Origin: Psammoneis japonica
Taxonomy: Eukaryota
NCBI GenBank assembly: GCA_008632985.1
Contig: QPGO01000160.1
Span: 1 to 64,000, forward strand
Reading direction: 5' to 3'
DNA: 64,000 nt
Shown here: positions 20,438 through 55,099 of the stretch, piece after piece
Layout: every line of letters starts with the position of its first letter
Numbering within the stretch: the stretch's first letter is position 1
Translations under genes and position numbers: made by a program
The notes under the pieces: generated by a model
What the model was told of the DNA's origin: nothing
Seen by the model: the letters and a program-made list of their open reading frames with translations, nothing else
Database searches by the model: none

Positions 20438-23400
20438 AATTTTGCTGGACCTCTCATTGTCCCCAAGAAGCCTCCAAGGTGCTGGCCCAGTTGCCTGGAT
20501 CTTCACAATGCCAAGCGGTGCCACCATCCAGCTGAATGCCATGATGTGCTGCATCCCTGGTGCCTGACAACATCTGTCATTTGCCACAGTGCCTCTTCAA
20601 CAAAGTGAAGGGTGTCTGTGGGAAGCATGAGGATGACCAGCACAGTTTCAGACTGTGTGTTGATGGCACAGGGAAGTTGGAAGCCCCGTGTCATCCACAA
20701 AGCCACTTGCCTGTTGCACCAATGACCAAGGGGGTGTCTGAAGCTCCCCAAATGAAACCTGCTCATTCTCAATGAAAAGAATCAAAATCTGACAGCAGGT
20801 CAGAAGCTTTTGTCAGAGATGCACTCCCGTTTTGGTCATTTGAACTTTGGTTGTGCACAGAGGCCCTTCTCCGCTAAGTTCCTTTCTTGTCAGACTGGTT
20901 CAAGTGAGTGGCAAAGTGTGACCACCCAAGATGACAGTCCCTGAACACAATGGGTCCCTTCAAGCTGACCATTTGCAACCTGTTCAGGCTGTTGGTGTCA
21001 TTGATCATTTTGAGTCACACCTGCTGGGCCAAACCTTTGACTCATCCAGCAAAGCTGTGTCCAAGCAATTCAAGGGAGGGTGCATCTTCGCAGACCATGC
21101 CTCAGGACACCTTCATGTTGAACATCAACTGACTTTCTCCACTGCAGAGACAATTTGGGCAAAGCAAGCATTTGAGAAACATGCTCTTGACCATGGTGCA
21201 AAATCATTCAAGAATTTCTTGCCGACAGCGGTGCACTCAAGGCCAACTCTTTTGTCCAGCATGTGCAGGTGCACAAGTGACATCTTCAATTCTGTGGTGC
21301 TGATGCCCATCACCAAAACAGGGTTGCCAAATGCAGAGTTCATTCTGTCTCCAACATGGCAAGAGTGATGCTCCTTCATGCATCAATTCATTGGAAGGGA
21401 GGGGTCGACATTTCACTGTGGCCCATGGCTGCACCTCATGCCATGCACATCTGCCATGTCACTCCAAATGCTCAAGGGCATTGCCCAGTGGACATTTTCA
21501 CCGGCTCCACAGTGCCTTGACATCAGTTGACAGACAGCATTCACACTTGGGGATGTCCAGTGTGCATCCTTGACCCAGTCCTTGCACTCAGGAAGAAGCT
21601 GCCTCAATGGCAACCATGCACTCACCGTGTGCTTTTCATTCTTGGTTTGAGCATGATCCACTCAAGCGAGGTGCCCCTTGTGCTCAATCTTCAAACTGGA
21701 AGCATTGTTCCTCAGCGTCAGGTGGTTTTGGACAATCTGTTCACTGCTGTGCCATTGATCAAGAGGGAGACAGATCCACCCAACCACTTGGAGCAACTTT
21801 GTCTTGAGCAGTTGATTTGCATCCCTCTGGAGAAAGACCAGGCAGTCCACCTGCACAATGAGAGGCTTGTTCCTCCTGAACACCAATGCAAGGAGCAAAA
21901 ACTGGCCTGAGAGACTCACATTGAGGCACCTTCCAACCAACTCCATTGACGTCTGTGCTGGATCCACCTGTTCCTCCCAACAATGCATTGAATTGAGTCA
22001 TGCGCCCACAACAACTCCAGAGCTGGCTCCAGCTCCACCTCCAGCTCCACCTGCAACTCAAGACACTGTAGACTCTGCAGAGCCTGCACCAATTCAGCCA
22101 CCTCCTCCTCAGGAAAGTGACAAACTTCCACACCATCTGAAGCACCTCCCAAACCAACAGCATCTGCTCCAGTCAAAGCACCTCCCATGGTGAATTCAGA
22201 GGGAGAACCGGGGCTGCAACAGTCTTCCAGGTCAACCAAGGGACAGCTCCATTCTGCCAAGTTCACAGACAAAGTTTTTCTTAGCTCCGCCAAGGAAGAA
22301 GAGGTGCAGACATGACGCCAAGCTCATCCAGCATGTTTGGTGCTGCTCTTGAGACTGATTTGGATGCTGGCACATGCAACATTGGCAATCCCAGGGCTTG
22401 TGCAGCAAGCAAGAAGACCAAGAACCCTGATTTGCCTTCACCACACAATGCTCTGAAGGGTCCGGAAGCAGAAGAGTGGATCAAGGCAATGAAGATTGAA
22501 GTCAATGTGCTCATCCACCGATGAGCCTGGAAAGTGGTTGAATGCATGCCAAAAATGAGTGCATTCCCTGGCACATTGGCTTTCAAACTTAAGAGAGGCC
22601 ACCGGATGGAATGCCATTGAAGTGCAAGGCCTGACACTGCATCCGCGGTGATCTGCAGAAAGAGGGTGTGGATCATTTTGAGACCTGTGTGCCGGCAGTG
22701 CAATGGTCCAGCATGTGACTGATGCTCACTGCTGCATTGAAGGAAGGATGGACTGTGTGTCAAGCAGACTGCACCGCAGCCTTTTGCCAAGTGGATGTTG
22801 CCGAAAAAGTCTGCATGTCACCACCAAAGGGTTTCATGCCAAGGTCAGGACTCAATGTGGTCCTCAAGCTGCTGAGAGGACTGTGCAGCCTCAAGCAGTC
22901 TCCAAAGTGCTGTCATGAGAAATTGTGGGATGGTTCAATCAAAAATGCAGGTGGGCACCTTCAGCCACAGACCCTCATTTACACTTCAAGGAAGGCATGA
23001 TGTGCATCGTGCACATTGTCGACACGGCATTTGCTGTTGCATCAGCAGAAGCTCTGGAAGAGGAGATTCGCAAGCTGGGAGTCTCCAAAAATGAGCATCA
23101 CCATGCATTTGAACTTAGAAACAAAGGAGAAATTGGCAACTTTCTTGGCATCAAGATTGAAAAGCTCTCTGAGGGTCAATTTCTGCTCACTCAACCTGGT
23201 CTCATTGACAAGGTCCTGTGCACTGCCCAAATGCAGGATTGCAGTGGAGCTTCTGCTCCAGAACTGCCTGCGGCTGTTGGTGCCAACACGGATGGCCTGC
23301 CTTTTGATGAACCCTGCAATTGTTGTTCTGTGGTTGGAATGTTGGTGTGCTTGGTTGGCAGTGAACAGCCGGCCAGACATTGCATGTGCAACACATCAAG

Positions 23401-23654
23401 TTGCGCGTTTTTTGTTTTCACCCCGAGTGTCCCATGCTGCTGCAGCAAAGCAGATGCTTGTGTGTGTCAAAGCTGCTGCTGCTGATCAAGCCTGCACAAG
23501 ATCATCCAGTTGACTGTCATGTTGATTCTGACTTTGTGGGCTCATTCAGTGTCGAAGATGGGCAAGACCCAATTTCAGTCAAGTCCAGGACTGGATGTCT
23601 CATTTGGTGTTCCGGCTGTCCACTTGTGTGGGTGTCCAAGCTGCAGACTCTTGC

Positions 23655-24013
23655 ACAGCATTGTCAACTGTGGAAGCATGCATCTGGCAGTCAATGTCTG
23701 CACTGTCCCAGATGATTTTTGCAACTTGCACACCAGCCTGCACTTGTGCCCAGTCAGAATGAAAGAGCCAGCCCCACTCATTCCCACTGATGCAGGTTGT
23801 CATGATGCAGCAGGCCACAGAGCAGGTGGCAAAGTGATGCAACAATCAAGTGTCAGCCATGTGTTGAAAATAAGATGCATCATTGGCCACTGCATTGCAT
23901 GTGCCTTGCAAGCAGCTGTGCAGGCCAAGGCACCGGTGGTGGCATGCTTGGCATTGCAGCAGGCAAGAGGCTGGTTTGATGGTGGTGGCTGCTCCTCATG
24001 TTGCGCTGTCGCA
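23655..24013 (+). mobile_element. Insertion in Copia RNase H containing a Ngaro/DIRS-type RT-RNase H fragment
   Basis: DDFCNL...GCHDAAGHRAGG aligns with DDFRDL...GCHDAAGHGAGG of the Ngaro element at ~58840-58960; Copia frame resumes at AMHDLIPI. Confidence 0.65.
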
Positions 24014-24339
24014 GGCCATGCATGATCTCATCCCCATTTGTTAATTTCTGAAGGAGCTCAACTGCAGCGCATTCTGAAAGTGGCCACAACTCACTCCAAG
24101 GCTTTTGAGCTTGCCAACCAAGGCACCAATGACTCACCTGTCAAGCAGAATGTCCTGCATGCGTCTGTTGTGTGCAAAGACAACACCACACTGTGTGCCT
24201 CAAGTTTGCACATGTGCCCAAGTTGTCTTCACAAACCAGCACATTGGCATCCCTCATCACTGGTTTAGGACCAAAGTTGAACAATTGGAGATCGATGTCC
24301 AACCTGTCAGCACTCCAGAGCAACTGGCCAATCAGCTCA

Positions 24340-25560
24340 TGTGTGTTGACATTGTTGCGCTTCTTGCACACAAAACCTGTGTTGATCTGCTGATGTTGTG
24401 CATGTGAACTCAACAAGACACAGGGCAGCACCAATCTGAAAAAAATGTGCTTCACTGTGTTAAAAAAAACCATGACAATCCTCCACAATGACTGAAAATC
24501 TAAGAAGATCAAGCTTCTTGTCAAAAACTCTAGTTGAATGCTCAATCAGTGCTTTGTCAATGTGATCGAACAAGAAAATGCCATGACAGCTGCTGCCATG
24601 AATGGACCCGTTCATGCACAAACAACTGTCATGTCTGCAAAGGCAAGAATGTGGAGACAGGTCAATGCGACTGCGCTTGATGCAATCAAGTTGTCAGGTT
24701 TTGATTTTTTGTTGTCACTGTGGCTTGTGATGACCATGTTGACTGATGGCATTTTTGACATCTTCATTTCACTTGCTCAGATTTTGCATTGGGGTTCACT
24801 TGCTCAGATTTTGCATTGGGGTTCTTCACAAACCATGCATCTGCAGACTTGAGGCCAAATCTTTCACAGCAACACATGATCTGATGTCACACTGAGGTGG
24901 TTCTTTGGTGTGTGCTCAAGGTTGTTGCTTGGTTGACAGTCAAGAGCCAAGAATGCAAGATTTTTGGTCACGTCAACAATGACAGCAAGGCTTGCCCTCC
25001 ATTGTGATGGAGTGTGCTGACTGCAAAGAAGGCTGTGTGTGCAAATGTCCCGCTGATCTTGTCGCAAGCTGAGACAATGACGACGCTGGTGGGGGTCAAT
25101 GTTTTGCACAACATTGTTGGTGCTGCATCTCACAGTGCCTCACCCCATTGTCTGCAGCCCTTCTCCGCAACTTGCTCTGTGTTTCTTTGCTCTTTGAAAT
25201 GGATTTGGGCCATTGTGGCAAACCACAAGAGTTGAGAACAATGCCTTTTGGTGCCTCATGTTCTGCAGAATTTTCATTTGCCAGTTTTACATGCTGCAGT
25301 CTTGCTGCATGTTTCATCGTGCGTCTTTCTGCTCTCTCCGCAACTCTTGCCAGTGGGTTGAACGTTGGGTGCATTTCTTCTGACCTTCGCTGGCGTTGTC
25401 ATGAGTCTTGGGTTGCCGCGAGCAATCGCAAAATGGACAACGACGATTGTTGCTGACAATGTTGTGGTGTCTCTCTGGCCAGCAGCTCTGGCTAGAGCAG
25501 CAGTGTAAACAGTGCTGCAGCATGTGGCATCCTCACCGACCTCGACATGAGATTTTGACA
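24340..25560. mobile_element. Decayed unclassified repeat relic; contains a 27-bp tandem duplication at 24768-24821
   Basis: TA-depleted up to a sharp boundary near 25560; TTCACTTGCTCAGATTTTGCATTGGGG x2. Confidence 0.45.
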
Positions 25561-32385: not shown

Positions 32386-33016
32386 CTAAATTCCCAGACT
32401 CCCATATCCCGGAATGCGTTCAATCTTGGCAAAGTCCCATTCCTTGTTGCAAAGCGGACATACGGATCGGGTCTTGAGCCAACGCTGAATGCAATCGAGA
32501 TGAAACACGTGTCCGCAATTGCCAAAGGCAATCGACAAGCCATTGTCATTGGTAGAAGAAGGATTGGCTTGATACTCAATCGAGGGTTCATTCAAAGAGT
32601 TGCGGCAAATTGCGCACTATGATGGAGTGAGAAGTGTGTGAGAAAAGCATTTCTTACAAAAAAAAGTGCCATTCACTTAGAGTCAATTCTCTTCTCAACA
32701 CTTACCGTATCGGCGCAAATATCCCACGACCACATGGCTACCGCATTCCATTTTTTGATTTCAAATCGAGGCGGAGCGGGGCCCGCCTTGGCAGGTACCG
32801 GCTATAAATCATATAGAAACAGCGCGATTGTAATGATGAGCAATGTTGTCTGCACGAATCATCAGCACGAGGTAGTTTGGTGTTGTTCTACGTTTCACAT
32901 GAATTCACTGAATCATTCCAACACCACCATTATTACTATACACAATAACTCACCTCTGCGGCGACAGCAGCAGGAGCATCCGCCATGTCAACGTCTTTGG
33001 ATTCTTCAGCGCTCAT
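32386..33016 (-). CDS. RBX1: RING-box protein 1 (cullin-RING ligase subunit), three exons
   Basis: [46 protein letters not shown]. Confidence 0.93.
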
Positions 33017-34350
33017 GGTCGGTCGTTGTTGGCGCCGCGGGCAGCGGGCAAGTCTGCAACGAAAATCGAAAAATCAAAATAAGTCTCGGGTGAGCAGGCG
33101 GACAGACGGAGAGGACAAGCTACGTACTCGTACGTAGAGTTTTACGTGCTACGCAGATTCCACGTTGTGTTCTCGTATAAAAAGGATAAATGCCTGAAAA
33201 CGATAGAGCGATTTCTGACTCGGCGATTTCGGATGACGGCTGGACGACAGGAAGAAATAATGGGATGCATGTGGTGGGCGCGACTAAGAAGCAGCAAAAC
33301 AGCAGTCACTTGTTTTGGAAGTCACAACATGTCAACACAACATTGATGGGGTGGAGAATGAGCACATGGCTTTTCATTTTGCAGTGTGCCTCCTTGACCT
33401 TTTAATCATTGCAGAAATCAGCAACAAAAGGGCGGGGCCAAAAGCTCACAAACCAGGTGTTTTTTGCACACAAAAATCTGCAAAAGCACAATTGACAGAT
33501 TGCCATTTTTGGAGCCTGCATCATGATGGCACATGTGGAATGACACAGTGCTGACCCTGCAGCAATGCTGGCTGCTCAACACACATTGAAAAACAGAGCT
33601 CCAGCTGTGTGCCTCTCCAACCTCCTGTCGCACAATGTGCCGCATCGTCGCCAAACAAACACAGCACTTCTCTTGCAACCAGGCTCAAGCTGAGATGAAG
33701 GTTTTTCTGCAGCAAAGGAGAAAAGAAAAAGTTGACAGAGCATGGGAAGAAATTGAGTGGGTTTTGATTGCAAAAACTCTGCCACCTGCTGCGCGAACAA
33801 TCATCGTGGCCAGTGCGTGTGAGCCCCCCTAGAGCCGTCATTTCTGGCCCCAGTTTGTTGGAAGGAGCCTTCATTTTGAGAAAGGAGCACCCTCTTAATT
33901 CCTGCAGAAGAAAGTGGCAAGAGCATCAAAAAAATGTTGCAAACACATTGCCCAGCCAGCTTGCTTGTGACATGCTTGTTGCAGCTGCAAACCACCGCCA
34001 GACAGTTTTGCACACAAAAGTTGAAACTCTGCTCTCAGCCCCAAGGGCAAAGTTTGGTTTTTGTTGCTGCTTCAGCCCAGAAGAGACATTCTTGTGAACA
34101 TCACAGTGTTGCTGAGAAATTGTTGCAGAAAACTGCCTCTCTTTTTGAAGCTGTTGGCAGGAGAGGGGGGGGAAGCGACCACTTTGCTGCACAGCACAGG
34201 TTTGGGAGTTGTCACTTTGGAGGCACATCTTGCTGTTTTGAGTCAGAGACAGCTTGGGGGGAGGGACAAAAAGCTGTTCAAAATGACAGTGCTGAAAAGG
34301 CTTTGTGGCTCTTGTGCACACCCATGTCAAAGCAAGTGTTTCAAACTCAT

Positions 34351-34627
34351 TGACAGGATTTGAACAGGATTTAGGTGCGCGCGAAGCATCGCGCGCTGTT
34401 TAGTTTACCGCGCACAGTTTTGTGTGCTTTAGTTCCACGCGTTCACGCGCGATGTAGTTTGCTTTCGAGCCACAAGGCTCACAAGAACAATGACAGTAGC
34501 CCGATCACACCGACTTGCACGTCCTTCGGCTCCTGCAACGGTCTCTGAGCGGAGACTCATCTGCTATTTAGACAGCAGCAAGGAGTCATTGTTTTGAATT
34601 CTTGCCATTTGCCTTCAATTTCTGTCA
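34351..34627 (+). repeat. 5' LTR
   Basis: Direct repeat of 41018-41294, TG...CA ends. Confidence 0.95.
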
Positions 34628-35368
34628 GACAGATGCGCGGGTGGAGGCAAGCGCGCACTCAGACAAGGCGCGGCAGACGGTCTGTGCATCAGAAGACCCC
34701 ACATTTTCGCGAATGAGAGCCTTGCCCTTGTCGGTGAGAAGGATGCGTTCGAAGACGGCGAACATGTGCTTTTGCTGTTCAGCAAAGAGCAGTTTGTCTT
34801 CGGGGCTGGTCGGTTTGTACGACGAGTCTAGAATGCACTCGACGTCTTGGGCACGGGCTTGTGCCACAAGTGAGGTGTGCCAAGTGTGCCACTGCTTGTC
34901 AGATTTGAGAGCCGTGAAAGCGGTGGGATCACGCTTGATGCCTCGCTTGAAGTCTCGCACCAGGTCGCGTGCCTTGGTCGGGTTGGTGACATGTGGAGGT
35001 GCAAGGGGTGAGCTGCCGATGGACACAGAAGACATGCAGTCGGGGCTGAGGCGGCAGGCAAGGAACTCGTCATGCGTGAACAAAGAGGAGTCGTTGGCAA
35101 CGTCAAGACCTTTGTGTGCTTTGACAATGTACAGACTAACTGGTGCTGCTAACATGTTCTTATGACCACGGGGCAAAGGGATTACATTGGTGCCGTTGTC
35201 GTGCTCAAGCGAGTCGATTTGGGACGGCATGAACGTGAACAGTTCCTGACACGAGTCCGTGCCGTCTTGGGCCAAAGCCAAACGAAGAGGACTCCCAGCA
35301 CCTTGGGCAAGCACGGTTCCAACAACATGCTCGAAACCATCGGTTTGTTGCTGACGAGTGAGAACCAT
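34628..35368 (-). pseudogene. gag: Inverted gag N-terminal part of the Copia element
   Basis: MVLTR...RDFKRGIKRDPTAF...AQARAQDV; truncated at the LTR end. Confidence 0.8.
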
Positions 35369-36260
35369 GGCAGACAAAAGTGGTGTCAGGACAATCAATT
35401 CTGGTTGGGAAGCGAAGGTGGACTCGAAACTTGGGTGAGAATGGACTTGACTTGAAATGGACTTGACTTGAAATCTTGAACTGTCTTAAAATCAGAAGTC
35501 GCCGGGCTTTGTCATCCCGTTCGTTGTTGAGTGCTAAACTTCCCATCCGGTCCGTAGAGTTGTGCCGGCACGTCCGAACCCGCAGCCAGCGGCGCTTTGG
35601 GTTGCTTACGAGCGGAGTAGCGGGTTGTAAACCCCTGCAGGTAAGCTGACTAGAGGTGGACAAGACCCCCGAACCGTTCTTATTTTTACATCGGTTGGAT
35701 TTCCCGATCAGGCTGGCCAGTTGACGCAGGCGTCAGGCGCTGTGGACGAACGAACAAACGTGGGAAAGCACCCTCGCCCCAACGTGGGCTGCAATCACGG
35801 CTGCTTGCTCTCACAGTCGTCCTCGTGGACCTAGTAGAACTGTAGAGCACCAGCAGTCCGGGGTAGATCAGGTGCAATGGACTCGGTGTGCTTGTAGAGT
35901 GGCAGCAAAACCGCAGTCCGAAGAGTGGATAAAGGTTCTTGGCCGTGAAGACATGCACACATATACATGTGCATGTCTTCAGCGACTAAGATCCTTGAAT
36001 GTGTAGGGTTCTTGACCGTTAACCGAGGAACAGGTACATCAAGGGATGTTGATCAAGGATAGACTTGGACATGACCGTTGAATATAAGTCTTCAGCGACC
36101 AAAGGTGGCATAATCAATCCAGATATCCAGCGGTAAGGAGACTTGACGGTGACGTTAACTTCCTGCCGATGCCCTGGCATTGAATGCGCGTAGACTTGCC
36201 GATGTGTGTAGAACATATACGGAGGTCCACGTAGAATTGAAATAGCGTCGTTGGTCCAGT

Positions 36261-39200
36261 GACCACTTCTCTGAAGGACAGAAGCGCGTCATGCTCGAGA
36301 ATGCCGTGCACCCTGTCGAGGAACTCCGTGCTGTCAAGAACCAAGCTGATCAGCATCGTACGCAGAGTGGCAAGAGCCTCACATGCGATCAATGCTGTGG
36401 CTTGCTCCTCTCCGCGGCAGCTCAGTGCGACAGCACGTTTCAACCCAAGACGACACCTCGAGCTCCCCGACGTGCCACACACGCACACGACGTCCACTCC
36501 GAGGAACCGTCCGACGATGTGTTCTACGACATTGACAGCGACATTGACGTCCTTCAGGCCAATGCTGCCCACACCCGCGGTCCCAGCCTTGCCGGTGACC
36601 AATGGAGACGTCTCCCTCCCGACCAACAACGGCTCTGGGATTCGTTGCCCGATTCCTCCAAGGCGATCATCCTTGAGCATTCTCGTCCGCCTCCCCGCAA
36701 CCCGCGAGCCAGCAACTGCCATGAGTCTGTTACGGCCAACCTTCATGACCAGCGCCTTGGGAGTGACGGTGATGTCAACTTGTCCAACACGTCTCCTGCT
36801 GACTCTGGTGACTCCGCTCCACATGTGGACGCCACTTCGGACAATCCCATCCTGGTGCACCTCACCAAGCGCAAGCCACTGCCACCCGGTGATCTGCAAC
36901 GTCTGTTGTCTCCTAACCAAGCCCCCAATGCCAGTCGACCGGGGCCATCCGCCGCTTCCTCCGCTGCTTCCTCTACACCGCCAGCTTCTGCAGATGACAC
37001 AGAACTTGACGGCCGCACTTGCCGCCGCGTCAACAACCACAATGTCATTTGCTCTGCCTCTGCTCATCGCTCCACACGCACTGGCGCTCTAGTCGATCGT
37101 GGGGCCAACGGCGGCATTGCTGGTGACGACGTTCGCGTCATTGCACACACCTCTCGCCAAGTCGACGTCCAGGGCATTGACGATCATCAATTGGTGGACA
37201 TCCCCATTGTCACCGCTGGTGCCGTCATTGAGACCCAGCGTGGTCCCGTCATCGCCATCCTCCATCAGCACGCATGCACGGGCAAGGGCAAGACCATCCA
37301 TTCCTGCGGCCAGCTCGAATGGTGCAAACAGGATGTCAACGATCGCTCTGTCAAGGTGCCCAACGGCTTGCAACGTGTTGCCACTCCTGATGGCTATGTC
37401 ATCCCCATTGACATCAAGGCTGGCCTGCCTTGTGTTGCCATGCGACCTTACACTGACGCCGAATGGGACACCCTGCCCCATGTCATCCTCACCGGTGATG
37501 ACACATGGGACCCTTCCGTCCTCGATCACTCTGTCACTGACGACGACCAGTGGTGCGACGCGATCTCTGACCTGCAGGACGATCCCACTGCCAACCTATT
37601 TGACGAATGCGGCAACTACCGTCATCGTGTCGTTGTCAACGAGACCATCATGTCCGCTTCCTTGTCTGCCGATCACGCGTCCGCCCTCGATGATCACCTC
37701 ATTCCGAACGACGACGTGTTCTACGAGTGTCATCTGCATGCGATTGGCCCCCAGGGCGATGACGTTCCACCTCCGGAGCGCACTGTACAGCCCAAGGACC
37801 CCCCCTTCGAGTCTCTTCGGCCTTGCTTTGGCTTCCCACCTGCCGATGCGGTCCGTCGTACTTTTGACTGCACCACGCAGCACGCCCGCATGCCCGCCGG
37901 TACACACCTTCGCAAGGCCCACAAATCACCCAACCCCGCCCTTAACGTGCACCGCCGCAACGAGCCCATCGCCACTGACACCGTTTGTGCCGACACCCCG
38001 GCCGTCGACTCTGGTTGCACCAGCGCCCAACTGTTTGTTGGCACCGAGTCTACCGTCACTGACGTCTGCGGCACTGGGACGGACAAAGAGTTTGTCAACA
38101 CACTCGAGGATCAGATCCGTGAACGTGGTGCCCCATCCAAACTCATTAGCGACCGTGCTCAAGTTGAGATCAGCAACAAAGTGCTCGGGATCCTCCGCGC
38201 CCACTTCATCTCCAGCTGGCAAAGTGAGCCTCACCAGCAACACCAAAACTTTGCCGAGCGTCAACACCAGACCGTGAAGCGCATGGCGAACACTGTCATG
38301 GATCGTTTTGGTTCGCCCGCCCACACATGGCTGCTGGCGCTCATGTACGTGTGCTTCGTGCTCAACCATGCAGCGTCCCCACGTCTCCACTGGCGCACGC
38401 CCCTCGAGACTCTCACTGGCTCCACCCCGGACATCAGCCCGTTGCTTCGCTTTCACTGGTGGGAACCCGTGCACTTCCACCTCGATGACTCCGATTGGCC
38501 ATCCGAATCCCGTGAGTTGCGTGGACGCTTCGTTGGCATTGCTGAGCACGTCGGCCACCAGATGACCTTCAGGATTCTATCTGACGAGACTCAGAAGATC
38601 CTCCACCGGTCTAACGTCAGCTCCGCTGCCCCCGATCCTGCCGTTCGAAACCTGCGTCTTGATCCTCCTGATGGGGAGCCACCTGAACCCATCATCAAAT
38701 CTCGCCATGACGACAACCCCGTCGATTCTCCTGATGGGGAGATCAGGACACCCAAGATGCCAGTTTTCGATCCGCAAGACATCATTGGACGCACCTTCCT
38801 CATGCAGCCACAAGAGGACGGACAACGCCACAGAGCTCGCATCGTCAAGGCCGTCGAAGACCACGAATGGAAAGTGAACGGCAATCCCAAGCTCACTAAG
38901 TTCGTCTGCTCTGTCAACAATGACGAATGCGAGGAAGTCCTTGCCTACAATGACATCATGAATCACATTGAGCAAGAAGACGAAGACACCACCATTTGGA
39001 AATTTCGACGCATCGTGTCACACGAAGGACCTCTGAAGCCTCACGACCCAACCTGGAAAGGCTCCAGCTACAACATCATGCTTGAATGGGAAAGTGGGGA
39101 GATCACGTCCGAGCCTCTTGCCATCATCGCCAAGGACGACCCCGTCACCTGTGCCATCTATGCACGAGAGAACGGACTCCTCGACACTGATGGCTGGAAG

Positions 39201-41000
39201 CGGTTCCGCACCATCGCGAGGCGCCAAAAGAAGCTATTTCGCATGGCCAACCAAGCCAAGCTTCGCTCCTTCCGCACTGCACCTCGCCACAAGTGTGGAC
39301 ACAAAGTTCCCCAAGAACTACAAACACGCCATGTCACTAGACGAATGCAACGGCAACCGCAAGTGGGGAGACGCAACTAATCTCGAGATGGACCAACTCG
39401 ACGAATACGAAGTCTTCCATGACTGCGGGCCCTTCAAGTCTTCCACTCCTCCTGCGGGACACAAGAAGATCCGAGTGCACCTGGTGTGCGACGTGAAACA
39501 CGACGGTCGCCACAAGGCACGACTCGTAGCCGACGGGCACCTCACGGACGTACCTGTCGACAGTGTCTACTCCGGAGTAGTCTCCCTCCGTGGCCTTCGG
39601 CTGATGATTTTCCTGGCCGAACTCAACGAGTTGGAGACATGGGCCACCGACATTGGCAATGCCTACCTTGAAGCCACCACCAAGGAGAAGCTTTACATTG
39701 TAGCTGGACCCGAATTCGGCAAACTCGAAGGACACATCCTTGTCATCCACAAGGCACTGTATGGACTGCGCAGCTCCGGTCTCCGCTGGCACGAGCGCTT
39801 CGCCGACTGCCTGCGAGCTGAAGGCTTCTTCCCCTGCCGCGCCGAACCCGACATTTGGATGCGCAGGAACGGCGACCACTGTGAACACATTGCCGTTTAT
39901 GTGGATGACCTCGCCATTGCCATGAAGGACCCTCAATCTTTCGTCGACACTCTCACGGAAAAGCACAAGTTCAAGCTCAAGGGTGCGGGACCCATTGAGT
40001 TCCATCTGGGTTGCGACTTTTCCCGGGAACCCGACGGAACCTTGTGCCTGTCTCCGCGCAAGTACATCGAGCGCATGGTCGACAGCTGCGCCCGACTGTT
40101 TGGGGAGAAACCCACCACCAACGCCCTGTCACCTCTAGAGAAGGGTGACCACCCCGAACTGGACACTTCCGAACTGCTGGGACCCGATGGCATTCACAAG
40201 TTCCAGTCTCTTGTTGGTTCACTCCAATGGGCAGTGTCCCTTGGTCGAATTGACATTGCCACGGCCGTCATGTCACTCTCTAGCTTCCGAGCTGCGCCCC
40301 GTCAAGGCCACTTGGATCGTGCCAAACGCGTCTGTGGGTGCCTCTCCAAGATGCGACACGGTGCTCTCCGCGTTCGCACGGAAGAGCCCGACTATTCGGA
40401 TCTCCCTGCTCCGGCCTATGAATGGATGCATTCCGTGCATGGTGAAGCAGAAGAGATGATCCCAAAGGACGCTCCACCGCCCCTTGGCAAGTTTGTCACT
40501 GCCACCCACTACGTCGATGCAAACTTGTACCATTGCATGCTCACCGGACGCTCTGTCATGGGAATGCTCCACTTCCTCAACAAATTCCCGGCTGATTGGT
40601 TCTCTAAGAAACAAGCCACCGTGGAGACTGCGACCTGCGGGTCTGAATTTGTTGCCGCAAGGACTTGTGTTGAGCAGATTGTCGACCTGCGCATCACCCT
40701 GCGCTGCCTTGGCGTCCCGATCCGTAATGTTAGTTACATGTTCGGTGACAACAAGTCAGTTGTAGACAGTGCCACCATCCCGCACTCCAAGTTACACAAG
40801 CGACACACCGCACTGTCGTTCCACCGTGTGCGTGAGGCAATTGCCTCTGGTTACCTTGAGTTCCACTTCATCGAAGGCTCCCGCAACCCTGCTGACATTC
40901 TCAGCAAGCATTGGGGTCACTCCCAAATCTGGGACCTTCTCCGCCCCCTCATGTTCTGGAACTTCATTCCATCCGAAGTCGAATCTGTTTCTGTGGCTCC
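36261..41000 (+). pseudogene. pol: Copia gag C-terminus plus pol (protease, integrase, RT, RNase H); frameshift near 39310
   Basis: LVDRGANGG; SDRAQ, SEPHQQHQNFAER; DVKHDGRHKARLVA, DIGNAYL, ALYGLRSSG, YVDD; YVDAN, GSEF, FGDN, NPADILSK. Confidence 0.93.
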
Positions 41001-41017
41001 TCAAGCAAACTGGGGAG

Positions 41018-41294
41018 TGACAGGATTTGAACAGGATTTGGGTGCGCGCGAAGCATCGCGCGCTGTTTAGTTTGCCGCGCACAGTTTTGTGTGCTTTGGT
41101 TCCGCGCGTTCACGCGCGATGTAGTTTGCTTTCGAGCCACAAGGCTCACAAGAATGATGACAGCAGCCCGATCATGCCGACTTGCACGTCCCTCGGCTCC
41201 TGCAACGGTCTCTGAGCGGAGACTCATCTGCCATTTAGACAGCAGCAAGGAGTCATTGTTTTGAATTCTTGCCATTTGCCTTCAATTTCTGTCA
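41018..41294 (+). repeat. 3' LTR
   Basis: Direct repeat of 34351-34627, preceded by PPT and followed by TSD. Confidence 0.95.
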
Positions 41295-41799
41295 CTCATG
41301 ATGGAAGTCATTGCACCAGATGTGGCGCGGCACATTGTGCTCTGCTCTCTCCAGCAGGGGCACAGCCAAACAGGAGTTGTCCCCTTTTGTGCTGTCACAG
41401 ACTTTGGCTTTCACACACCAACATTGACCAAGGGCTCAATTTCATCTGCACGGGTTGCTGAATGTTGCACTCATCTTGTGTCATGAGATCTGGCAGATGG
41501 CCGCATGCCAACAGGAGGACAGGGCCCTGCAAAGCTGATGGTCATGTTTGCACATTTGTGGCACTTGTGTTTTTGGCATCTGAGGAGCTCTTCTTGTTGC
41601 AATGGAAAGTCTTTGGAAAAAATTCAGTCAGCTTGGCCTTGTCTCAAACCAAAAACAGTCTGAACAGGGCAAAGAAATGAGCACCTCATCACACAAAAGT
41701 TGCAGAACAACAATTGTGACTGTCTCCAAGCATTGGCTTTTCTTGTGTGGCCATGAGATGGGTTTTCAATCCTGGTTTTGTGACTCTTTGGCATGCCTG

Positions 41800-42990
41800 C
41801 ACCACCGCAACTGAGACTGTGGATGATGACACCTGAGCTTCTGTCATCCCATCGTGGCTTGTGCTTGACTCAATCATTTCTGCCCTTGACTGTTGCACCA
41901 TTGTTTGCAACAAATGCCTCTCACACAAGGAGATGCTGACAGACACCAACAACAACCTTTGGATGAAGCTCCATGCAATCACATCAACAAGGAAAAGAGC
42001 AATGCCCACCACCCCTGCCTTGTGGAGAGACAAAGCTCTCTCTGGCTGTGCATTTCAAAAACAACCAACATGGATTTGTTTTGTCATTTGTCAGTGGACA
42101 GGCCTCCCTGGCAAGAGACAAACCCTCCAACCACCAAGACAAAGCCATTCATGATCATGCCTTGGAGGTGATTTGTTTGTGCAGTGAACTCTCTCCAAGA
42201 CCAACACTGCTGTGTGTTTGGGCTGCATTCTGTGTTCATGGCTGCCTGGGTGTCAACTCCTAGAGTGAGCATTGGTCAGGTGGACATGTTCCCACCCCAG
42301 GTGATGCACAAGTGACAATCCATTTTGAACACAAATTGTGTGTTTCTTGTGCATGAGCATTTTCACATTAAAACACACTTGCACAGGTGAAAAGTGAAAA
42401 AAGGTTTTTACGGTGGCACTCAAGTCCTCATCATGGGATGCACATGATGTGTTGCAAATTCCTGAGCAGACTCAGCACTGATTGTGCAACAGCAGATTTG
42501 GTGCAATGATGAGAAGCTTTCACAGGTGTGGCAGAATGCCAATTTTACTTCATCACAAGTGACCAATTTGTGTTGACATGGTGAAAATCACCCATTGTGT
42601 TGAGACTTGTTTGTTGCAATAAAAACATTGATGGCACAAAAACAATCATGTTGCAACACTGGCACGAGTCTTGTCAGTGTGTTGCAAACTCTGACACTCA
42701 GGTGAATCTGGGCTTTTGGTGGCAAAAGCTTTGGTTGCAAGTCAGAGGCCACGTGAAATTGTGCAAATGTCATTTTTGTGCATGACTTGGTTTGCACGCG
42801 GCTGGAGCACATCATTGGCAACCAAACAAAGCTGGCAGATGACATGTCTTGGCAATCTGACCCTCACCTCCCTCATTTGGCTTGCACCACTCAGCCAGCA
42901 TCATGTCTGAGGTTTCCTTTTCTGAGGACTTGGACCTTTTTCCTCCTGATTCAAGAGTTTCCACAACTGCTCTCCACTCTCAACTGTTCT
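41800..42990 (+). mobile_element. Decayed DIRS/Ngaro-like RT-RNase H fragment
   Basis: VDDD at ~41820; HIIGNQTKLADDMS...FPFLRTWTFF resembles the RNase H end of YR retroelements. Confidence 0.4.
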
Positions 42991-45970
42991 CTGAGGAGTT
43001 GCTGCCGGTCCCTGTGCAGACCCCAGGGCACACAAAGGACAGCTTCAACACACTGGAGGCCTGTGTTGCATTCTTCCATGAACCTGAAATTGTTGTCGAT
43101 GATGATGGTAGAGCTGCAGCTGTTGTCAAGGATGATGCCCATGATGACTTTGGCTTTGTTCTTCCAGTTGTCCTTCAAGTCATGTGCCATCATGACACAT
43201 GTGGTGGGCCTGTTTGCAACTCCAAAGGGCATGACAATGCACCAACACTTCCTGCCCTGTGGGGCTGTGAGTGCAATTTTGGCAGCTGACAGTGCCCCCA
43301 TCTTATTTTGATGGTGTTGCTGCATGTGTTGAACAGGAAAAAGCTTGAAGCAGAGCTGATGGATGCAGTGTGAGACTGCTTTGGTCATCTGATCAAGATT
43401 GATGCTACCAATGCAGAGTCACCACCCAGATGAGCTCATTGACATCTGTGATGTCTTCTTGACAAGGCTTGGTGGCCACTCACTTGATGTGTTGGGACAA
43501 CATGTCCATTCTCCAGCAGTGTGTCAATTGCATCATTCATGATGGAGGTTTCATGTGGGCTGCATCTGATGTTCTTTGCCATGGTTGGCTTGACAGCATG
43601 CTGGCATTGATGACACATTTGCAGTCTTGGATGGGAGTTTTGACATTTTCTTTGCAGAAACAACACTGTGCTGCAGTTGAGCTTGATGATGTGAGACTTG
43701 ACGTTGTTGTCTGGCAGATTGTCATCAAGCCGCGAACTCTTTTGAAGCTCATTTGTGTCTCAGGCTTGGCCAAAGATGCAAGAAATGAAGTTGGGATCAA
43801 CATCAAGGTCTGTGCACTCTAGACAAGCATTCTTCTCAATGACTTTGCCAACGTGGGCCTTGTGAAGAAGTTGAAAGTCATCTTGGATGTCTGGTGAATT
43901 CTCTGTCTTTCAAAAAGGTTGGGCTTCTTGGCACAACACTGTGGTTTTAGAGTCATGATTTGGCAGCAATTCTGTGATTGCCCAGCAGTTGACCCTGTGA
44001 TGGAGGCATGTTTGGGACATTGACAGTGAGCCAAGTGATGGCAAGGCATGTGGCATGATGTGATGTTGGTTGTTCACAAATGACTTTGACATCATGCATG
44101 ATGCTGCAGTGTGTGACACAACATGGTGGTGCCAACCAGAAGTGGTGGTTGTGGATGGACCAAAATTGAAGTGAACTTTTGGGGAGATTTGAGAGGTCAA
44201 AGTGCCAATTTTGGGTTCTGTGTTGAAGGAGCAGTTCTCAATGAACTTGTTGATCTGGCCTGAATGCTGTTTGGCCACAATGAGATTCAAGCTGGATGCC
44301 AACATGTCACAAGAAATGAGCATTGGAGTGAGGAGCTTTGGAGTCAAGCAAGCCTTGGTGCAGAGCTCCACAGGAAATGGGTTGCAGTCAAGCAGCTCAG
44401 ATTCCTCTGCATTGTCTTTGAAGTCCATGGCCAAGTTGGCTGTGGAGATGAAGCTCATCCCCACAATGCAGCTCTTCACAAAGATGCTCTTTCTAACAGC
44501 AATTTTCAGGAATGTTCTTGGATGCCAATTCTTGGTGTTGTGGGGCAGATGGAACTCCAACACTGCAGGGAGACATTCACAGACATTTTTGTCTGGGTTT
44601 TGTCATCTTTCTGGACCACATTCAAAAGTGCAATGGGTGAGTGGTGATCTGTGGCATGACAGGTGCTCTTGACCAGCTTGGGGTGTGCACCTTTGCAACA
44701 GGCATCCAACAGTGTCAGAGCTGTCAATGATGGCATGGACACCCAGACTGAATGTGCTGTCAGGCAAGCCAAGCTGAAGCATGACATCATGAGGCAAGGT
44801 GTTGTTCACTGGGATGGGAAGTTGAGGAAAGTTGCTTTGTGCAAATTGAAGGACATGCGTGTGGAGAGCAACAACCATCTTGGAGTTGCTGTCACATTTG
44901 TCATTGGAGCTGCCAAGGAACTGCTTGATGGAGTTGATGATTGGGCTGGCAAGCTGATTGTTTCCCCCTGATTTGGACCAAGGAGACAGGAGAGCAGAGG
45001 GGAGCAGGTCACCAGTGTTGACATGGTTTTGATTGCAGCAACAACTGCATGTCCTCTCAGCGTGCTTCTTCACATGCTTGTTGTGAAGTCCTTGTTGCAT
45101 GCTGACTCAGTGTTCTCACAGTGCCCCAGCTCATTGACACAAGGACTGGCAATTGTTTTCATTTTTGAGTCACAGCACAGATGGTCCACAGCTCCACACC
45201 CCCAGCAACCCGACTTGCCTGCAGATTTGCACAGATTCAAAAGCCAAGGCAGTCTTGGTGGCATTGTGAGTGATGATGGGGTTCTTGCTTGTCTTGGTGG
45301 GTTGATGTTTTGGTCATGGTGGCTGCTTTTCAGATGGAGCAGAAGGGTGCTGGGCAGATGGCTGTTGGACAATGGTTGCAAAGCCACATGTCTTGTGGAG
45401 TTTGCCTTGGATGAACAGACAATTGGCAGCAAGATTTGACTTGGTGGTCTTGCCTGCTGCACGCTGTGAAAGCTGCCTGAGTGAGCCTGGTCTGTTCAGA
45501 GCATTGGAGAGAAGCATTTTCCATGTGGCTGCAGAATCCATTGACCTCCATCTTCAGATGGATTTGGGGGTCAAGATTGCTGATGAAAGTGTGCGAAATG
45601 GGTTTGTGATTGTTGCAACATGTTTCTGGCAGGTTTGGAAGAGGAGTCACCAAGATGGTGGTCTGCCGCCACTGGGCCATCCTGAGTGGGTTTGACAACA
45701 CCTGTGCTGTCAAGGCAACACTTGGGGATGATGTTGCCTGTGGCACCATGGCAGGACAACACACCTCAGAAAATTCACTGGCTGCTTGGAAGACTTTTTG
45801 CTGACATGTGGCGAGGTTGTCCATGATGCTGAGATGATTGGCAAGGGCTGGTGGGTGTGCACTGGCCACCACCACCCTCTTGTTGTTGACACATCAAACA
45901 AGAGGCAGCATCCAGCATTGCCTGTGTTGGCAGTGATGCCTGCATGGGATGCGACCATGGGTCTGTGATG
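42990..45970 (-). mobile_element. Decayed Ty3/Gypsy retrotransposon (gag to RT)
   Basis: CWGCGAVDH knuckle; IMNDAIDTLLENGH; HHQNKM...KIALTAPQGRKCWCIVMPFGVAN...IIIDN. Confidence 0.7.
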
Positions 45971-46490
45971 CTCGCGAGGTGAAAGCAACTGTCTCCGGGT
46001 GAACGGAAAAGAGGAAAACCGTTAGAGATTGGCGATTCATGTACCAACGGTTAACGGTTTTCTGGAGCAAGCGTCGATGACGTTACCCTATGATACATAA
46101 GGTACAGTTACGCTTGGTTACAGTAGTGCTAACTGTACTTTAGAATCAGAATAATACCGGTATGTACAGTATGTACCCTTAGGTTGATTATATATTATAT
46201 CACGAGGTTGGAAGGTGGCCGGCGCGACAAGCCTACCGGTATGTACATAACATTTAATATTCATATGTTACTGTACTATAACAGGGACAGTATGGAGTTA
46301 AGGGGGGTCATCCCCGCGTTTATCCTAAAATTACCGTTGCATTTGAATAAGGTTTTTTATAGTGTTTATTTTTGAATACAAGAATTATTCATAGTCACAC
46401 CCGATCGCGCACGAAAACGAGAACCATCAGCACCGCGATCGAAGCACGACGATGATGACAATCATCGATATTTCTCAAAAACGTAGTTTG

Positions 46491-46958: not shown

Positions 46959-48271
46959 ATGGGCATGTCAGGTCTTGACAAAGTTTGTGGCAGACAGAAG
47001 AGCTGCCATGTGATGTGGTGATGTTTCTCATGGAGCAGAAGGCTGCTGGCACACGTCAGAATGTGGACGCGCCTAGCAACACTGGTGAAGCAATTGCGGT
47101 GCAACAACCCATGCGTCATTTGAAGTGTGCGATTGATGCAAATCTCGTGGGATGCAAGTGTGCACACGACCGATCATCATGCACGCCAGACGGGGCTGTC
47201 GAACGAATCGCTCGAGCTTTGTCTGATTCGAGAATTGATGCACACATTGTTTGTGACAACGCCACGGCAAGGCACCCATCCAAGTGAGCCTCGTGCTCTC
47301 GTCGAGCAGAGAGTGCTGAGAAAGCAATGCGTCTCATTGTGAGGAGAGCTGAGCTTCAATCTCTGCCAAATGAGAATGACAACACAGCTGAACACGCTGC
47401 AACAGTTGATGATTTCCAGAAGAAGATGCGAAGCCCAGAAAATGCCATAAAGCGGCTCCAGCTGCCGGAAGACTTTGCAACAAAATTGCAAGAATTTGTT
47501 GATTCGTGTGACTGTAGAGACAAAGGAGTTGTTGCTTTTGAAGTCTCACCAATGCAAGCGGATCCTTGTGTTGCAAAGTTGGCCACTGATGGTGAAGTTG
47601 ACTTTTTGATGTCCGGAGATTCGGACTTTCCCATGTGCATTGGACCAAACGGCAAAAGCGACATGGGTGACATTGTCATGAAAGATGTAAAGTTGGGAAC
47701 CAAAAAGGAGCCAATCCGCAGCTGCAAAGTTTACACTGGTCAGAAGGCCGTCGCCGACCTCATCAGCAAAATTCTCACACCCAAGCTAGGACGTTGTCCT
47801 TTTGATTCGGAGGATGGGCGCATCCCAGACTGTCCATTGTTTGACAGGGTACAAGATCCAATGGAACGTGCATTGTTGGGACCAATGACAGGTTGTGATG
47901 TTTGCCCAGGAGGGATGTCTGGAGTGGGTCCAAAGGCTGCCTCCGTCGTGTTCCAGAAACATTGTGCCAGTGGTTTGTCGGGTTCGGCGCTCCACGATGC
48001 ATTGGCAAATGACATGTCCTCCTTAGCTGGAGCAACATTGAAAAACAAAAATGCCGTGTTGTGCATGGCGGCTGCTCTCATGTTTGAGAAAACCAATGAT
48101 GGATGCGTGTTTCAAGCGCCAAAGGAGTTAGATCGATTCAATCAAGATTTCGCTGATTCTGAAACTATGATCATTGATGGGCCGGCTGTTTCTACATGCA
48201 AAGGTTGCTCGGCAGAGTCATCTCACCCATTTTTAGCAAGAAGCCAAAAGCAACACTTTGTTGTTGCGTGA
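46959..48271 (+). pseudogene. XPG/FEN1/Exo1-family nuclease (N and I regions), transposon-associated
   Basis: MGMSGL, AIDAN, IVCDN...PSK, SPMQAD, SGDSDF, GCDVCPGGMSGVGPKAA; frameshift near 46984 and in-frame TGA at 47285. Confidence 0.75.
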
Positions 48272-49704
48272 AAGAGTGCAGCAATGACAACACGAACTCA
48301 AAGTTAAGTCGTGCACCAAATTTACCCCCGAAATTAAAAGAAACCGCAACGCCTGCAAAGTGGATGACTTGCCAGCAAAAAGTCTTCCGACGACGAGAGT
48401 GGATGGACCGACTCGGCTACGGTCGGTTTTGCACAAGTTCCGACCTCAGGACATGCGACAAACATCCAATGGAAATGGTGACAGGTAAAAGAACCAAAAG
48501 CTCAAATAAGGTGATGTCCATTCCTCCATTCCAAGCTCCAGTGCAAGTTGGGGAGAGGAGTCATGACACGCCGGCAAAAACAATGTCGAACGGAAATGGT
48601 GCGGAACGAGAGATCTTGCGTCACGCAAAGAGAATGAGCATGGAAGAATCAAAGCTGTCCTTGCCGACTCGTTTAGCCATGGCAAGAGAAGGCACCAACC
48701 ACAGTGATCTAAAACAATCAGTGCCGGACCCACAGAAAATGGACCCGAGAAGCCTTGCCAATGAAACGCCGAACTCTCCGAAAACATCACTGCGAGCCCT
48801 TGCACCAAAAGAAGCAAAGCGACGCACCGGATTCAGAGATTTAAAACATTTGCTTCGGCACACCAATGTCATTTATGCTGGAGACTTTGACAAGATGGCG
48901 AAGACTGTGACGAAAATGACTTGGCTGGAAGAGCTGTCACTGTGCTTCGAGTTCACGTACGGCCGAAGCAAGAGCCGATCGCAAGACTTTGAATCTGAGC
49001 ATGACGTTGGGCACAGGGTTCTCATGAAAGCCCTTGAGTTCAGGCTTAAAGTTGAGCTTGATTGTCGTGCTCGATGGCCCATGTATGCCTCCCATGCAGA
49101 GGATGCAAAGTTCAGAGACGAAGCATGGAACAGACACTTCGACCAAACGACTGGACCTCGGGTGGTCATGCACGACGCGTCAAACGCACCTTTGCCCACC
49201 CCATCTTCAGGTGACATGAACCGTGCCCTGTGTAATTCCTACTACAACATGTGCTGTGGAAAAGCTGGCATTGCCGCCCAACTCTGTTGTTGGACATTCG
49301 GATTGCCTCTTGTCGCGGGTCACAGTGACGACGACAGACTCATCAAGGATGCGAGGATGCTGGAACTGCAAAAAGTCTTCTCCGAAACAGACCCTTCTTC
49401 AGACATGCCATTTTTGAACATTTTTGATAAAGGACATCACCTAACTTTGGAAGCTCAGACGTGTGGTCAATTGTGCCTGCGTCCTGATGATGCGGATGAG
49501 ACGTTCGGTGGCGACAAGGTTCTCAGAACGGGGTGCATCGCAGTGACTAGATCAGGGAATGAACGAGCTGTGAATCGTTGCAAAATGTCTTGGTTCATCA
49601 AGAGAGGGTGCGTTGATCAGAAGCGTGGGAACATCGGTTTTCTGTGTGATGCATGGGAAAGTTTCACGTTTAGAGTCAACTTCATGTGCAACAAGTTCCA
49701 ATGA
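48240..49704 (+). mobile_element. THAP-like domain plus PIF/Harbinger-ISL2EU-type DDE transposase
   Basis: CCVKECSN...P...W...CDKH; VMHDASN, NSYY, GHSDD, IFDKGH, IAVTRSGNERAVNRCK; TIRs not found. Confidence 0.75.
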
Positions 49705-53249: not shown

Positions 53250-54887
53250 GTCTAAAATGTCTGGCTGTCATCCGCACACAGTCTTACCATGTGAGTTGTT
53301 TTTGTTGTCACAAGGTGGAGGAAATTTGATGCCACCATGCTGGGCAGTTATTTTCACTTTCCATGCTGTTTGTCATGTTGGGCGGTTGCTTCTCCAACAA
53401 CTGATTGAGCAAATGATTCCCATGGAGTCTGCGCAACAATGCTCGTTTTTTTGTTTTTTTGCTGATGCCTCGGCGGGGGCAAATGTGCGCTAGAACATGT
53501 TTTTTGGCAACGTGCAAATTGACAAAATTTTCCATTTTTTGTGCATCACCGGGCCCTGGAACACATCAACAGCATCCACTCTAACATTGGCACTTGTGAT
53601 GGCGTCGCGGCTGGTGGTGCCATGCTCAACTGCCAAGCGCTGCTTTGCACACAAAAAATCTGTGTGGGCATCGTCAACAACTTGTTGGAATTCTTGGAGC
53701 CCCTTCCATGGTGCAAAGTGGCAACATTTTGCAGCTGCAATGACAAAACAACATGGGAACCACCTCACATCTCAATTTGGTGCTCAACAAGCAGTGCTTG
53801 CAAGCAGGTGCTCAAGTTGGGGTGTGGAGACTTTCATGTGGCAAAATTGGCCAAAGAAAAGAGTTGGCAGAACATGGGTCATCTCAGTTGTTGTTGGTGG
53901 GGTTTGATTGTGAAAACTCTGCACCACCTGCTGAACAGATTCTGCTGCACAAATGTTGTGGTTGACACTTGACCTTCAATCAAGAGCTGCCCAAGAGCCA
54001 TCATTTGTTTTGCCCCAATTTGTTGGCAGGGATGGCAGGGCTTCATTTTGAGAGAGGAGGAGCCATCTTCTCACAATTTTTGCAGCAATTGGTGGCAAGG
54101 ATGCAACAAAAAGTCCCAAATGTGTTGCTCAGAGTCAGTTTGTGATGCAAACCTGTGGTTCACAGTGTGCTTGCGCAGCTGCAAACCAGACATTTTTGCA
54201 CACAAAAATGAAAGAAAAACTCAGTGTTTTGCATCTCCATTCAGCCCCAGAGGTGAAGAGCACATTTGTTGCAGGACATCATGTTGTTGAGAATTTTCTG
54301 GTTGAGGCTGTTGGGAGGACAGGAAGCTGCCGCTTTTCCACACAGCTCAGCAACACACAGCTTGAGTTGTCACTTTGGAAGCGCAGATCTTTCTGTGACA
54401 GCACCTGTTTTTGGTTTGGCAACTTCAGGTGAGTGACAAAAAAGCACTCAAAATGACAGTGTTGAAAATGCTTTGGCTCTTGTGTGCAGGTTGAAGTGTC
54501 TCACCTCACTTTGGAAATTGTTGGAGCTGTGTGCCACAAAGTTTCAATTTTTTTTGTGTCTGCCACCGCAAATTCACATGGCAGCAAGACAAGTTGTGCT
54601 CTCTCCAGGCAGTCAAACAGGAATCACCCCCTTTTTGTGCCATCACCTTGGCCTTCACCAATGTAATTGACTGGGGCATCATTTCCGTCTGTGCTGGTTG
54701 CTGCTGAACGGTGAATTTGTGCAGTGCCATGAGATCTGGTGGATGATGGTGCATGCCAACAGGAGGACCGGGCGCCTTCCTGAGCCACCGGTCATGCTCA
54801 CAATTGCATGTGTTTGGCATCTGAGCTCTTTTTTGAAAACCTCATTGTTGCAATGGAAATCTGATGGAACAAAATCATCCGGTCTCA
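53250..54887. mobile_element. Old unclassified repeat relic, homologous to 33240-34350 and 41295-41660
   Basis: Collinear shared sequence blocks; TA/CG-depleted. Confidence 0.65.
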
Positions 54888-55099
54888 CTGGCCTCGAAAA
54901 GTTGGTCATCGGTGCCCCACAGAAAAACCGTTGAAAATGACCCTCTGACCTCGGGACAATTTGTTTCCCTGTTGCACCTCTCATTCTTCCGAAGAGCAAA
55001 GCAACAACCAGATAGTTTTAATCGCTGTCTTGAGGCTGAGGATGCCTTCAGCCGCATTGTTTGTTGTGTTCGCTCACAGGGATGCCACATTTCATTGTG

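Follow-up and report, generated by a model that had tools for sequence, protein, structure and literature searches.

The two long terminal repeats (LTR) of a Ty1/copia retrotransposon in the diatom Psammoneis japonica appear to record a mutation process aimed at the dinucleotide TpA. The element occupies positions 34351-41294 of the window, by which we mean the whole stretch of 64,000 nucleotides that was analysed (contig QPGO01000160.1 of assembly GCA_008632985.1, positions 1 to 64,000 of the forward strand). Both LTRs of a retroelement are copied from one template, so the differences between them arose after reverse transcription. Hypermutation of TpA in integrated transposable element (TE) DNA, after the LTRs had been made, very probably explains how this pair differs, rather than neutral age. 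Such a process would have turned TpA into TpG or CpA by A:T to G:C transitions on either strand of the palindromic target, removing about 45% of the copia element's TpA and leaving CpG and other sites almost untouched. It would be aimed at TE DNA and not at duplicated DNA generally, act in patches on the kilobase scale and run to saturation: old TE blocks would have lost nearly all of their TpA and, more slowly, nearly all of their CpG.

A repeat search found exactly two copies of the 277-nt repeat in the window, the 5' LTR at 34351-34627 and the 3' LTR at 41018-41294 (both + strand), which are 96% identical. The initial annotation had counted nine differing sites and sorted them into four classes, and both the count and the classes hold in a gapless alignment, where each of the 11 differing bases is a transition. 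Giving the 5' LTR first, five sites have TA opposite TG or CA (34373, ttAgg/ttGgg; 34407, ttAcc/ttGcc; 34431, ttAgt/ttGgt; 34497, agTag/agCag; 34565, gcTat/gcCat), two have CA opposite TG (34488-9, aaCAat/aaTGat; 34508-9, caCAcc/caTGcc), one has CA opposite CG (34437, ccAcg/ccGcg) and one is a T/C difference (34525, ccTtc/ccCtc). Eight of the nine sites thus sit at pyrimidine-purine (YpR) steps. When 11 random transitions were placed on either LTR in 200,000 trials, at least five TA-type differences arose with P = 0.056, at least two CA/TG doubles with P = 0.0015, and both together with P = 5e-6. The doubles, the lack of any transversion and the replication elsewhere in the window mark the LTR pattern as non-random. 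Raw divergence of the pair is 11/277 (4.0%) and falls to 1/277 (0.36%) once YpR-type sites are removed, so that, as had been anticipated, dating by LTR divergence would overestimate the age of this copy; the factor is about 10.

Which of the two states is the older one? Protein conservation gives the direction of change inside the same element. In the in-frame part of the reverse transcriptase (RT), 317 columns are conserved in at least 80% of 120 homologues. Seventeen of them are Tyr columns, of which eight are kept, five now read Cys (TGY), three His (CAY) and one Phe; columns have changed in 9/17 cases for Tyr against 12/300 for other residues (Fisher 7e-8). None of 19 conserved His or Cys has turned to Tyr, and Arg stands unchanged in all 23 of its columns, encoded by CGN in 22. 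Against the 37 of the 120 homologues with a length of 900 amino acids (aa) or more, the integrase part has six conserved Tyr (three kept, one Cys, one His, one Phe) and none of its four conserved His or Cys has become Tyr. Taken together, Tyr has gone to Cys or His in 10/23 columns and been kept in 11/23, and the reverse change is seen in 0/23. These codon changes indicate that TA to TG/CA is the derived direction within the copia element, whose CpG is still intact. They back the earlier proposal that most change since insertion took place at TpA, and the presence of both TG and CA products bears out its corollary that both strands were struck. On the assumption that the two doubles, like the five TA sites, were TA at insertion, the LTRs have taken 9 hits in 20 putative TA copies, although the doubles may also have come from CG. 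This share agrees with the 10/23 of the internal Tyr codons, as expected if all damage followed the making of the LTRs. In a copia RT homologue from another public source (P0221), 67% identical to this element, Cys or His stands in place of 7/18 conserved Tyr, a hint that the process extends beyond this genome.

Damage within the element is patchy. Hits affect 15/21 scorable TA sites in 39880-41294 (the 3' part of RT and the 3' LTR) and 0/7 in 38946-39763 (P = 0.0014), and this kilobase-scale patchiness accounts for the 3' LTR, with seven putative hits and three remaining TpA, being more damaged than the 5' LTR, with two putative hits and eight remaining TpA. The few TA sites that were hit or spared reveal no motif other than the dinucleotide itself. 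A runs test on CA against TG tracts in the old blocks described below gave no strand-coherent runs (z -2.0 to +0.8), with genic controls more clustered than the blocks; TpA is probably struck on either strand independently from site to site.

The same spectrum recurs in a second, unrelated retroelement at 54901-61166 (+ strand), with RT of RVT_1 type and split direct repeats (A1, 54901-55026; B1, 60694-60837; A2, 60878-61003; B2, 61023-61166) laid out as A1, coding region, B1, A2, B2. The A pair differs at three sites (two TA/CA and one CA/CG) and the B pair at seven (five TA against CA/TG and two CG/CA), all of them transitions. B1, which lies inside the TA-poor zone, lacks five TA that its twin B2 still keeps at the very end of the element. 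TA has an observed/expected ratio (o/e) of 0.04-0.33 across this element and CG one of 0.7-1.05. Tyr makes up 0.77% of its residues against 2.04% in homologues, and Cys plus His 7.7% against 4.7%. Four conserved Tyr columns were available, of which two are kept, one is Cys and one His (P = 0.07). Three of its 28 conserved Arg are now Cys or His, losses that appear to show the beginning of CpG decay. Its RT gave a weak RVT_1 match only (E 0.00098), plus RT-type look-alikes; relatives include one from Cyclostephanos. No tyrosine recombinase domain was found in its mutated frames, and we take the repeat layout to be Ngaro/PAT-like, in the DIRS order.

A control for ordinary mutation is provided by a tandem duplication outside any recognisable TE (9007-10613 and 12905-14510), whose copies are 97.6% identical. 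Its 38 differences, which include 20 transversions, 7 TA-type and 4 CG-type changes, have an ordinary spectrum. The 19 events pooled from the TE repeats comprise 12 TA against CA/TG, 2 CA/TG doubles, 4 CG-type and 1 other. YpR-type events make up 18/19 of these against 11/38 in the control (Fisher 2e-6), and transitions 21/21 differing sites or bases against 18/38 (P = 2e-5). The signature is restricted to TEs in this window, with genic regions ordinary as well, and since the 1.6-kb duplicate is untouched, duplication alone does not seem to trigger the process. The duplication has a period of about 3.9 kb with copies of 1.6 kb, carries long frames on both strands without a Pfam match, and has CA far above TG on the + strand.

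The composition of the window, scanned in 500-bp bins, is skewed in the same sense (TA o/e 0.38, CA 1.41 and TG 1.43 overall). Three blocks are nearly without TpA and CpG: block A (15000-25500, about 10.5 kb); block B, an old hypermutated block into which the copia element is inserted, leaving a left part (33450-34350, with two TA, at 33830 and 33896, and few CG) and a right part (41295-46000; TA o/e 0.00-0.10, CG 0.00-0.21, CA/TG about 1.7-2.3); and block C (53450-54890), homologous to the parts of block B that border the copia insertion (33821-34019, 34250-34316 and 41343-41626 match 53984-54207, 54420-54484 and 54597-54877). Almost every bin of these blocks has TA o/e 0.00-0.10 (about 0.03) and CA/TG of about 1.5-2.3, with CG mostly below 0.25 (about 0.1) and up to about 0.5 in edge bins. 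The edges are sharp to within about 100 bp, and the right edge of block B falls at about 46000-46023. The sequence is complex and non-repetitive, with 0-4 TpA per 500 bp and CA and TG at about twice the expected level. Presumably these are old, saturated mobile DNA. Block A holds a weak RVT_2 remnant (22919-23482, E 0.0011, below the curated cut-off), which was the only, sub-threshold, hit in the blocks when 60 frames of 109 aa or more from blocks A-C, 47-49.6 kb and the second element were scanned against Pfam; tblastn of the element's proteins and six homologues against blocks A-C gave no match at E <1e-3. Blocks B and C align poorly (59% identity), and CA/TG is the commonest adjacent double mismatch (21, the next 6), a count of little weight where CA and TG are also the commonest dinucleotides. 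The two younger elements have TA o/e of 0.04-0.4 in most bins at normal CpG (0.7-1.2), which gives an order of events: TpA is lost first and fast, CpG later.

Several features lie beside these blocks. Each of the two young retroelements lies in a copy of one old hypermutated family, with insertion points offset by about 300 bp (33821-34316 plus 41343-42172 against 53984-54877 plus 61239-61290); such DNA may be a preferred site of insertion. Bordering block B immediately on its right, 46023-46400 is very rich in TA (52 in 500 bp), with one every 4-6 bases, and looks like a short-period repeat. At 47000-49600 TA o/e is 0.07-0.28 and CpG near normal; the two long frames there (47288-48271 and 48178-49704, + strand) belong to no Pfam family, and a further young gene of mobile or foreign origin may be exposed to the process here.

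The TpA-free DNA is real in contigs derived from reads. The stretch is contained in four public runs, of one sample and one study. Three parts of it are matched by contigs of run X1 whose depth is that of single-copy DNA (about 64-69): 33000-34374, which takes in the left junction and LTR site 34373, and 42917-46325 each differ by one letter, and 41268-42792 has a gap of one base and is otherwise identical. The sequence lacking TA and CG was hence present in the reads and is no product of the assembler. The copia family is far more abundant, with a summed depth of about 5e4-1.5e5 over the element. Differences from other family copies fall at 340 places, and among the 40 listed, one is in the flank and none at the variable LTR sites. 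Among those listed, seven single sites are TA in most copies and CA or TG in this one, three show the reverse (TA in this copy), and the rest that were classed are five CG-type, seven CA/TG doubles, four other transitions and six transversions. The doubles are consistent with TA and CG being transient states on the way between CA and TG.

The copia element itself is ordinary: a defective member of a very abundant Ty1/copia family in a diatom nuclear genome, which we take to be CoDi-like. Its integrase-before-RT order and RVT_2 RT are the Ty1/copia arrangement. The LTRs have TG...CA termini (TGACAGG...TCTGTCA) and are bordered by an identical 5-bp target duplication, CTCAT, on the left at 34346-34350 (+ strand; the flank reads ...AAACTCAT up to TGACAGG) and on the right at 41295-41299 (+ strand), which points to a single insertion. 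Behind the 5' LTR, the 5' untranslated region and a gag-like segment (34628-36255, - strand) are inverted relative to other family copies: contigs of runs X2-X4 connect 34628 to 36256 on opposite strands, and sequence is missing at both breakpoints by comparison with contigs of other copies. A 286-aa open frame in this segment (34625-35485, - strand) matched no named family in the protein atlas, and no primer-binding site is readable after the 5' LTR, where this copy is rearranged. The protease/integrase part of the polyprotein is a 1044-aa open frame (36246-39380, + strand) that aligns to the N-terminal halves of homologues and gave no match in a Pfam search, integrase included; in long homologues, these halves correspond to 37482-39356, ahead of RT. 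RT (RVT_2, E 9.3e-29) and the C-terminal part form a 677-aa open frame (39037-41070, + strand), in which 8/17 conserved Tyr are the Cys or His described above, and a purine run, GGGGAG, stands before the 3' LTR. Between the two frames, an extra base at 39313 (+ strand) relative to some other copies shifts the frame; it is missing from the single covering contig in each of X2 and X4 and from two X1 contigs (103/333 of the depth), and homologues change frame around it, at about 39304-39356. This shift and the inversion make the copy defective. The frames otherwise stay open because the process makes no stop codons.

Could the damage have been done before integration? The initial annotation had argued from the LTR pair against ADAR-type editing of RNA before integration and for change in chromosomal DNA. 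RNA editing is excluded by the very fact that the LTRs differ; that the DNA was already chromosomal is our inference. Editing of the cDNA, double-stranded or in part single-stranded, by an adenine-directed counterpart of APOBEC would let the LTRs differ at integration already and leave the chromosome never targeted. It would fit block edges that coincide with element ends as well as chromatin targeting does, these being equally expected if whole elements were edited, and also the like losses of TA in LTRs and internal sequence (9/20 and 10/23). Against it, the saturated old blocks (TA o/e 0.00-0.10) would need many rounds of editing or continued action in place, both strands are hit without strand-coherent runs, and one element carries both heavily hit and unhit stretches (15/21 against 0/7, P = 0.0014). 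In the chlorarachniophyte Bigelowiella natans, moreover, the same signature arises de novo in integrated chromosomal DNA (bioRxiv 10.64898/2026.01.13.699255). Editing of cDNA is therefore an unlikely source of these differences. An artefact or a mosaic is less probable still. Mis-polishing or collapse of copies, or recombination or gene conversion between family members, could yield unlike LTRs in so abundant a family, all the more as its 5' internal segment is rearranged and the short contigs anchor no variable LTR site except 34373 to unique flank. That one site, however, is joined to unique flank in an X1 contig, the identical CTCAT on both sides argues for one insertion and against recombination between elements, and the same spectrum appears in an unrelated element and as changes of Tyr to Cys or His. 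A mosaic would in any case still require a source of TA against CA/TG variation among copies, that is, the same process.

Two further explanations would dispense with TpA as a target. Cytosine deamination of the kind known from repeat-induced point mutation (RIP), converting CpA/TpG to TpA in the 5' LTR, is suggested by 9/11 differing bases, at which the 3' LTR carries G or C and the 5' LTR A or T, as RIP would leave them. Yet TpA is depleted and not enriched in every TE of the window, conserved His or Cys has become Tyr in 0/23 columns while Tyr has become Cys or His in 10/23, the two CA/TG sites would require changes both ways, and the 1.6-kb, 97.6% identical duplication is without such a signature; the reverse polarity has very little to recommend it. 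Selection rather than mutation, through avoidance of UpA in RNA or through codon usage and with the LTR differences a coincidence, draws on the low TA of host genes (o/e about 0.3-0.6). It is hard to credit at all, as the changes destroy conserved Tyr, reach non-coding LTRs and dead blocks that have no frames, and bring TA o/e to near 0.03, far under the genic level.

TpA hypermutation after the making of the LTRs remains the favoured explanation, and a number of points weigh against it. The TA-type count on the LTRs is by itself only borderline (P = 0.056), because CA and TG are abundant there. The ancestral state at the nine LTR sites is taken from the rest of the element and not from an outgroup LTR. 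The conserved-Tyr test in the second element comprises just four columns with two changed (P = 0.07). Genic TA is low too, so some of the shortage of TA in coding parts of TEs may be ordinary. The read set may be the assembly's own source, and some of the assembled LTR bases could be mis-polished, given the abundance of the family. Finally, the enzyme and the integrated state of the DNA when it was hit are both presumptive.

What might the chemistry be? Enzymatic deamination of adenine at TpA, giving inosine that is read as G, is a tentative candidate with somewhat less than an even chance. By analogy with the proposal for B. natans, a polynucleotide deaminase would be recruited to silenced TEs. 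A mutagenic modification of thymine or adenine at TpA would give the same sequence trace, in which A to G on one strand looks the same as T to C on the other. The CpG loss of the blocks would be ordinary decay of methylated CpG.

The closest parallel is the B. natans preprint, the only published one found (10.64898/2026.01.13.699255). There, in mutation-accumulation lines, 230/231 mutations in two integrated viral regions were A->G or T->C, all of these on TpA, at rates about 1000x background in the viral regions and in only some of the lines. Coding sequences low in TpA were enriched in RT and DDE domains, and the authors propose a DNA adenine deaminase like ADAT2/3 (10.64898/2026.01.13.699255). 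The mutation signature described in this rhizarian alga is of the same kind as the one in P. japonica: change is almost only A->G/T->C on TpA, giving TpG and CpA, it is confined to integrated foreign or mobile DNA and acts unevenly and in episodes, and it leaves long-term TpA depletion with CpA and TpG enrichment in clustered windows and RT- or DDE-bearing sequences. The host here is a diatom, a stramenopile, and the targets are retrotransposons instead of giant-virus and virophage inserts. Depletion of TpA goes to near zero (o/e about 0.03, against 0.45 in their nucleocytoplasmic large DNA virus region) and the oldest blocks are also short of CpG. The evidence in B. natans is a mutation-accumulation experiment and here it is comparative; against their 230/231, 12/19 events in the TE repeats are TA against CA/TG, plus the two doubles.

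Other systems share part of the pattern. Fungal RIP, in ascomycetes, likewise hypermutates mobile DNA in the manner of a genome defence: its transitions depend on the dinucleotide, its borders are sharp, and it inactivates coding capacity and inflates ages based on divergence. RIP changes C to T mostly at CpA and so raises TpA and AT; here TpA is destroyed and GC goes up, no new stop codons arise and the frames stay open, and duplication as such seems to be no trigger, as the untouched 1.6-kb duplicate indicates. Nearly all TE bins have TA o/e of 0.00-0.4, with no rise in TpA. Decay of methylated CpG also removes a palindromic dinucleotide to TpG/CpA on both strands, and is the probable cause of the missing CpG in blocks A-C and of the four CG-type differences in the repeat pairs. 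CpG decay, however, does not produce TA against CA/TG differences, and the young copia element has its CpG intact (22/23 conserved Arg as CGN) with about 45% of its TpA gone. Editing by ADAR or ADAT and restriction by APOBECs share with the present case the idea of deaminase-based retroelement restriction and a preference for the 5' neighbour, but editing of RNA would mark one strand only and cannot make the LTRs of one insertion differ, and APOBECs deaminate C. ADARs prefer a 5' U/T neighbour of the edited A. This preference is also cited in the Discussion of the B. natans preprint (10.64898/2026.01.13.699255).

Elsewhere in the window, a sugar-phosphate transporter gene neighbouring these elements has its best named relatives in Mayamaea, Fistulifera, Nitzschia and Cyclotella (about 33-45% identity), in keeping with the diatom host.

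A diatom report of a TpA signature was not found in full-text literature searches, which had subscription journals outside their coverage. If the signature is confirmed genome-wide, a diatom would be the second lineage, and the first among stramenopiles, with TpA-directed hypermutation of mobile DNA, which would suggest an old and widespread defence of algae in the SAR supergroup (stramenopiles, alveolates and Rhizaria) and not a peculiarity of Bigelowiella. As a speculative extension, which we consider doubtful as a whole, genome defence in diatoms, perhaps throughout the SAR supergroup, might have TpA as a palindromic target in addition to CpG. Silenced mobile DNA may bear a strand-symmetric mark or enzyme activity at TpA; the candidates may include an adenine deaminase recruited by heterochromatin, or N6-methyladenine or 5-hydroxymethyluracil at TpA. 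The change of TA to TG/CA may erase transposons without new stop codons, and may mirror RIP and 5-methylcytosine decay chemically, as an ancient process common to rhizarians and stramenopiles. Model diatoms can be transformed and edited, so if they share the signature, the enzyme or the DNA mark would be directly testable.

There are consequences for the annotation of diatom genomes as well. Gene finders will call long spurious open frames in TA-free DNA, and saturated copies escape homology searches, as in blocks A-C, which gave almost no protein matches. The ages of diatom retrotransposons taken from LTR divergence would be inflated, as they are in the present copy.

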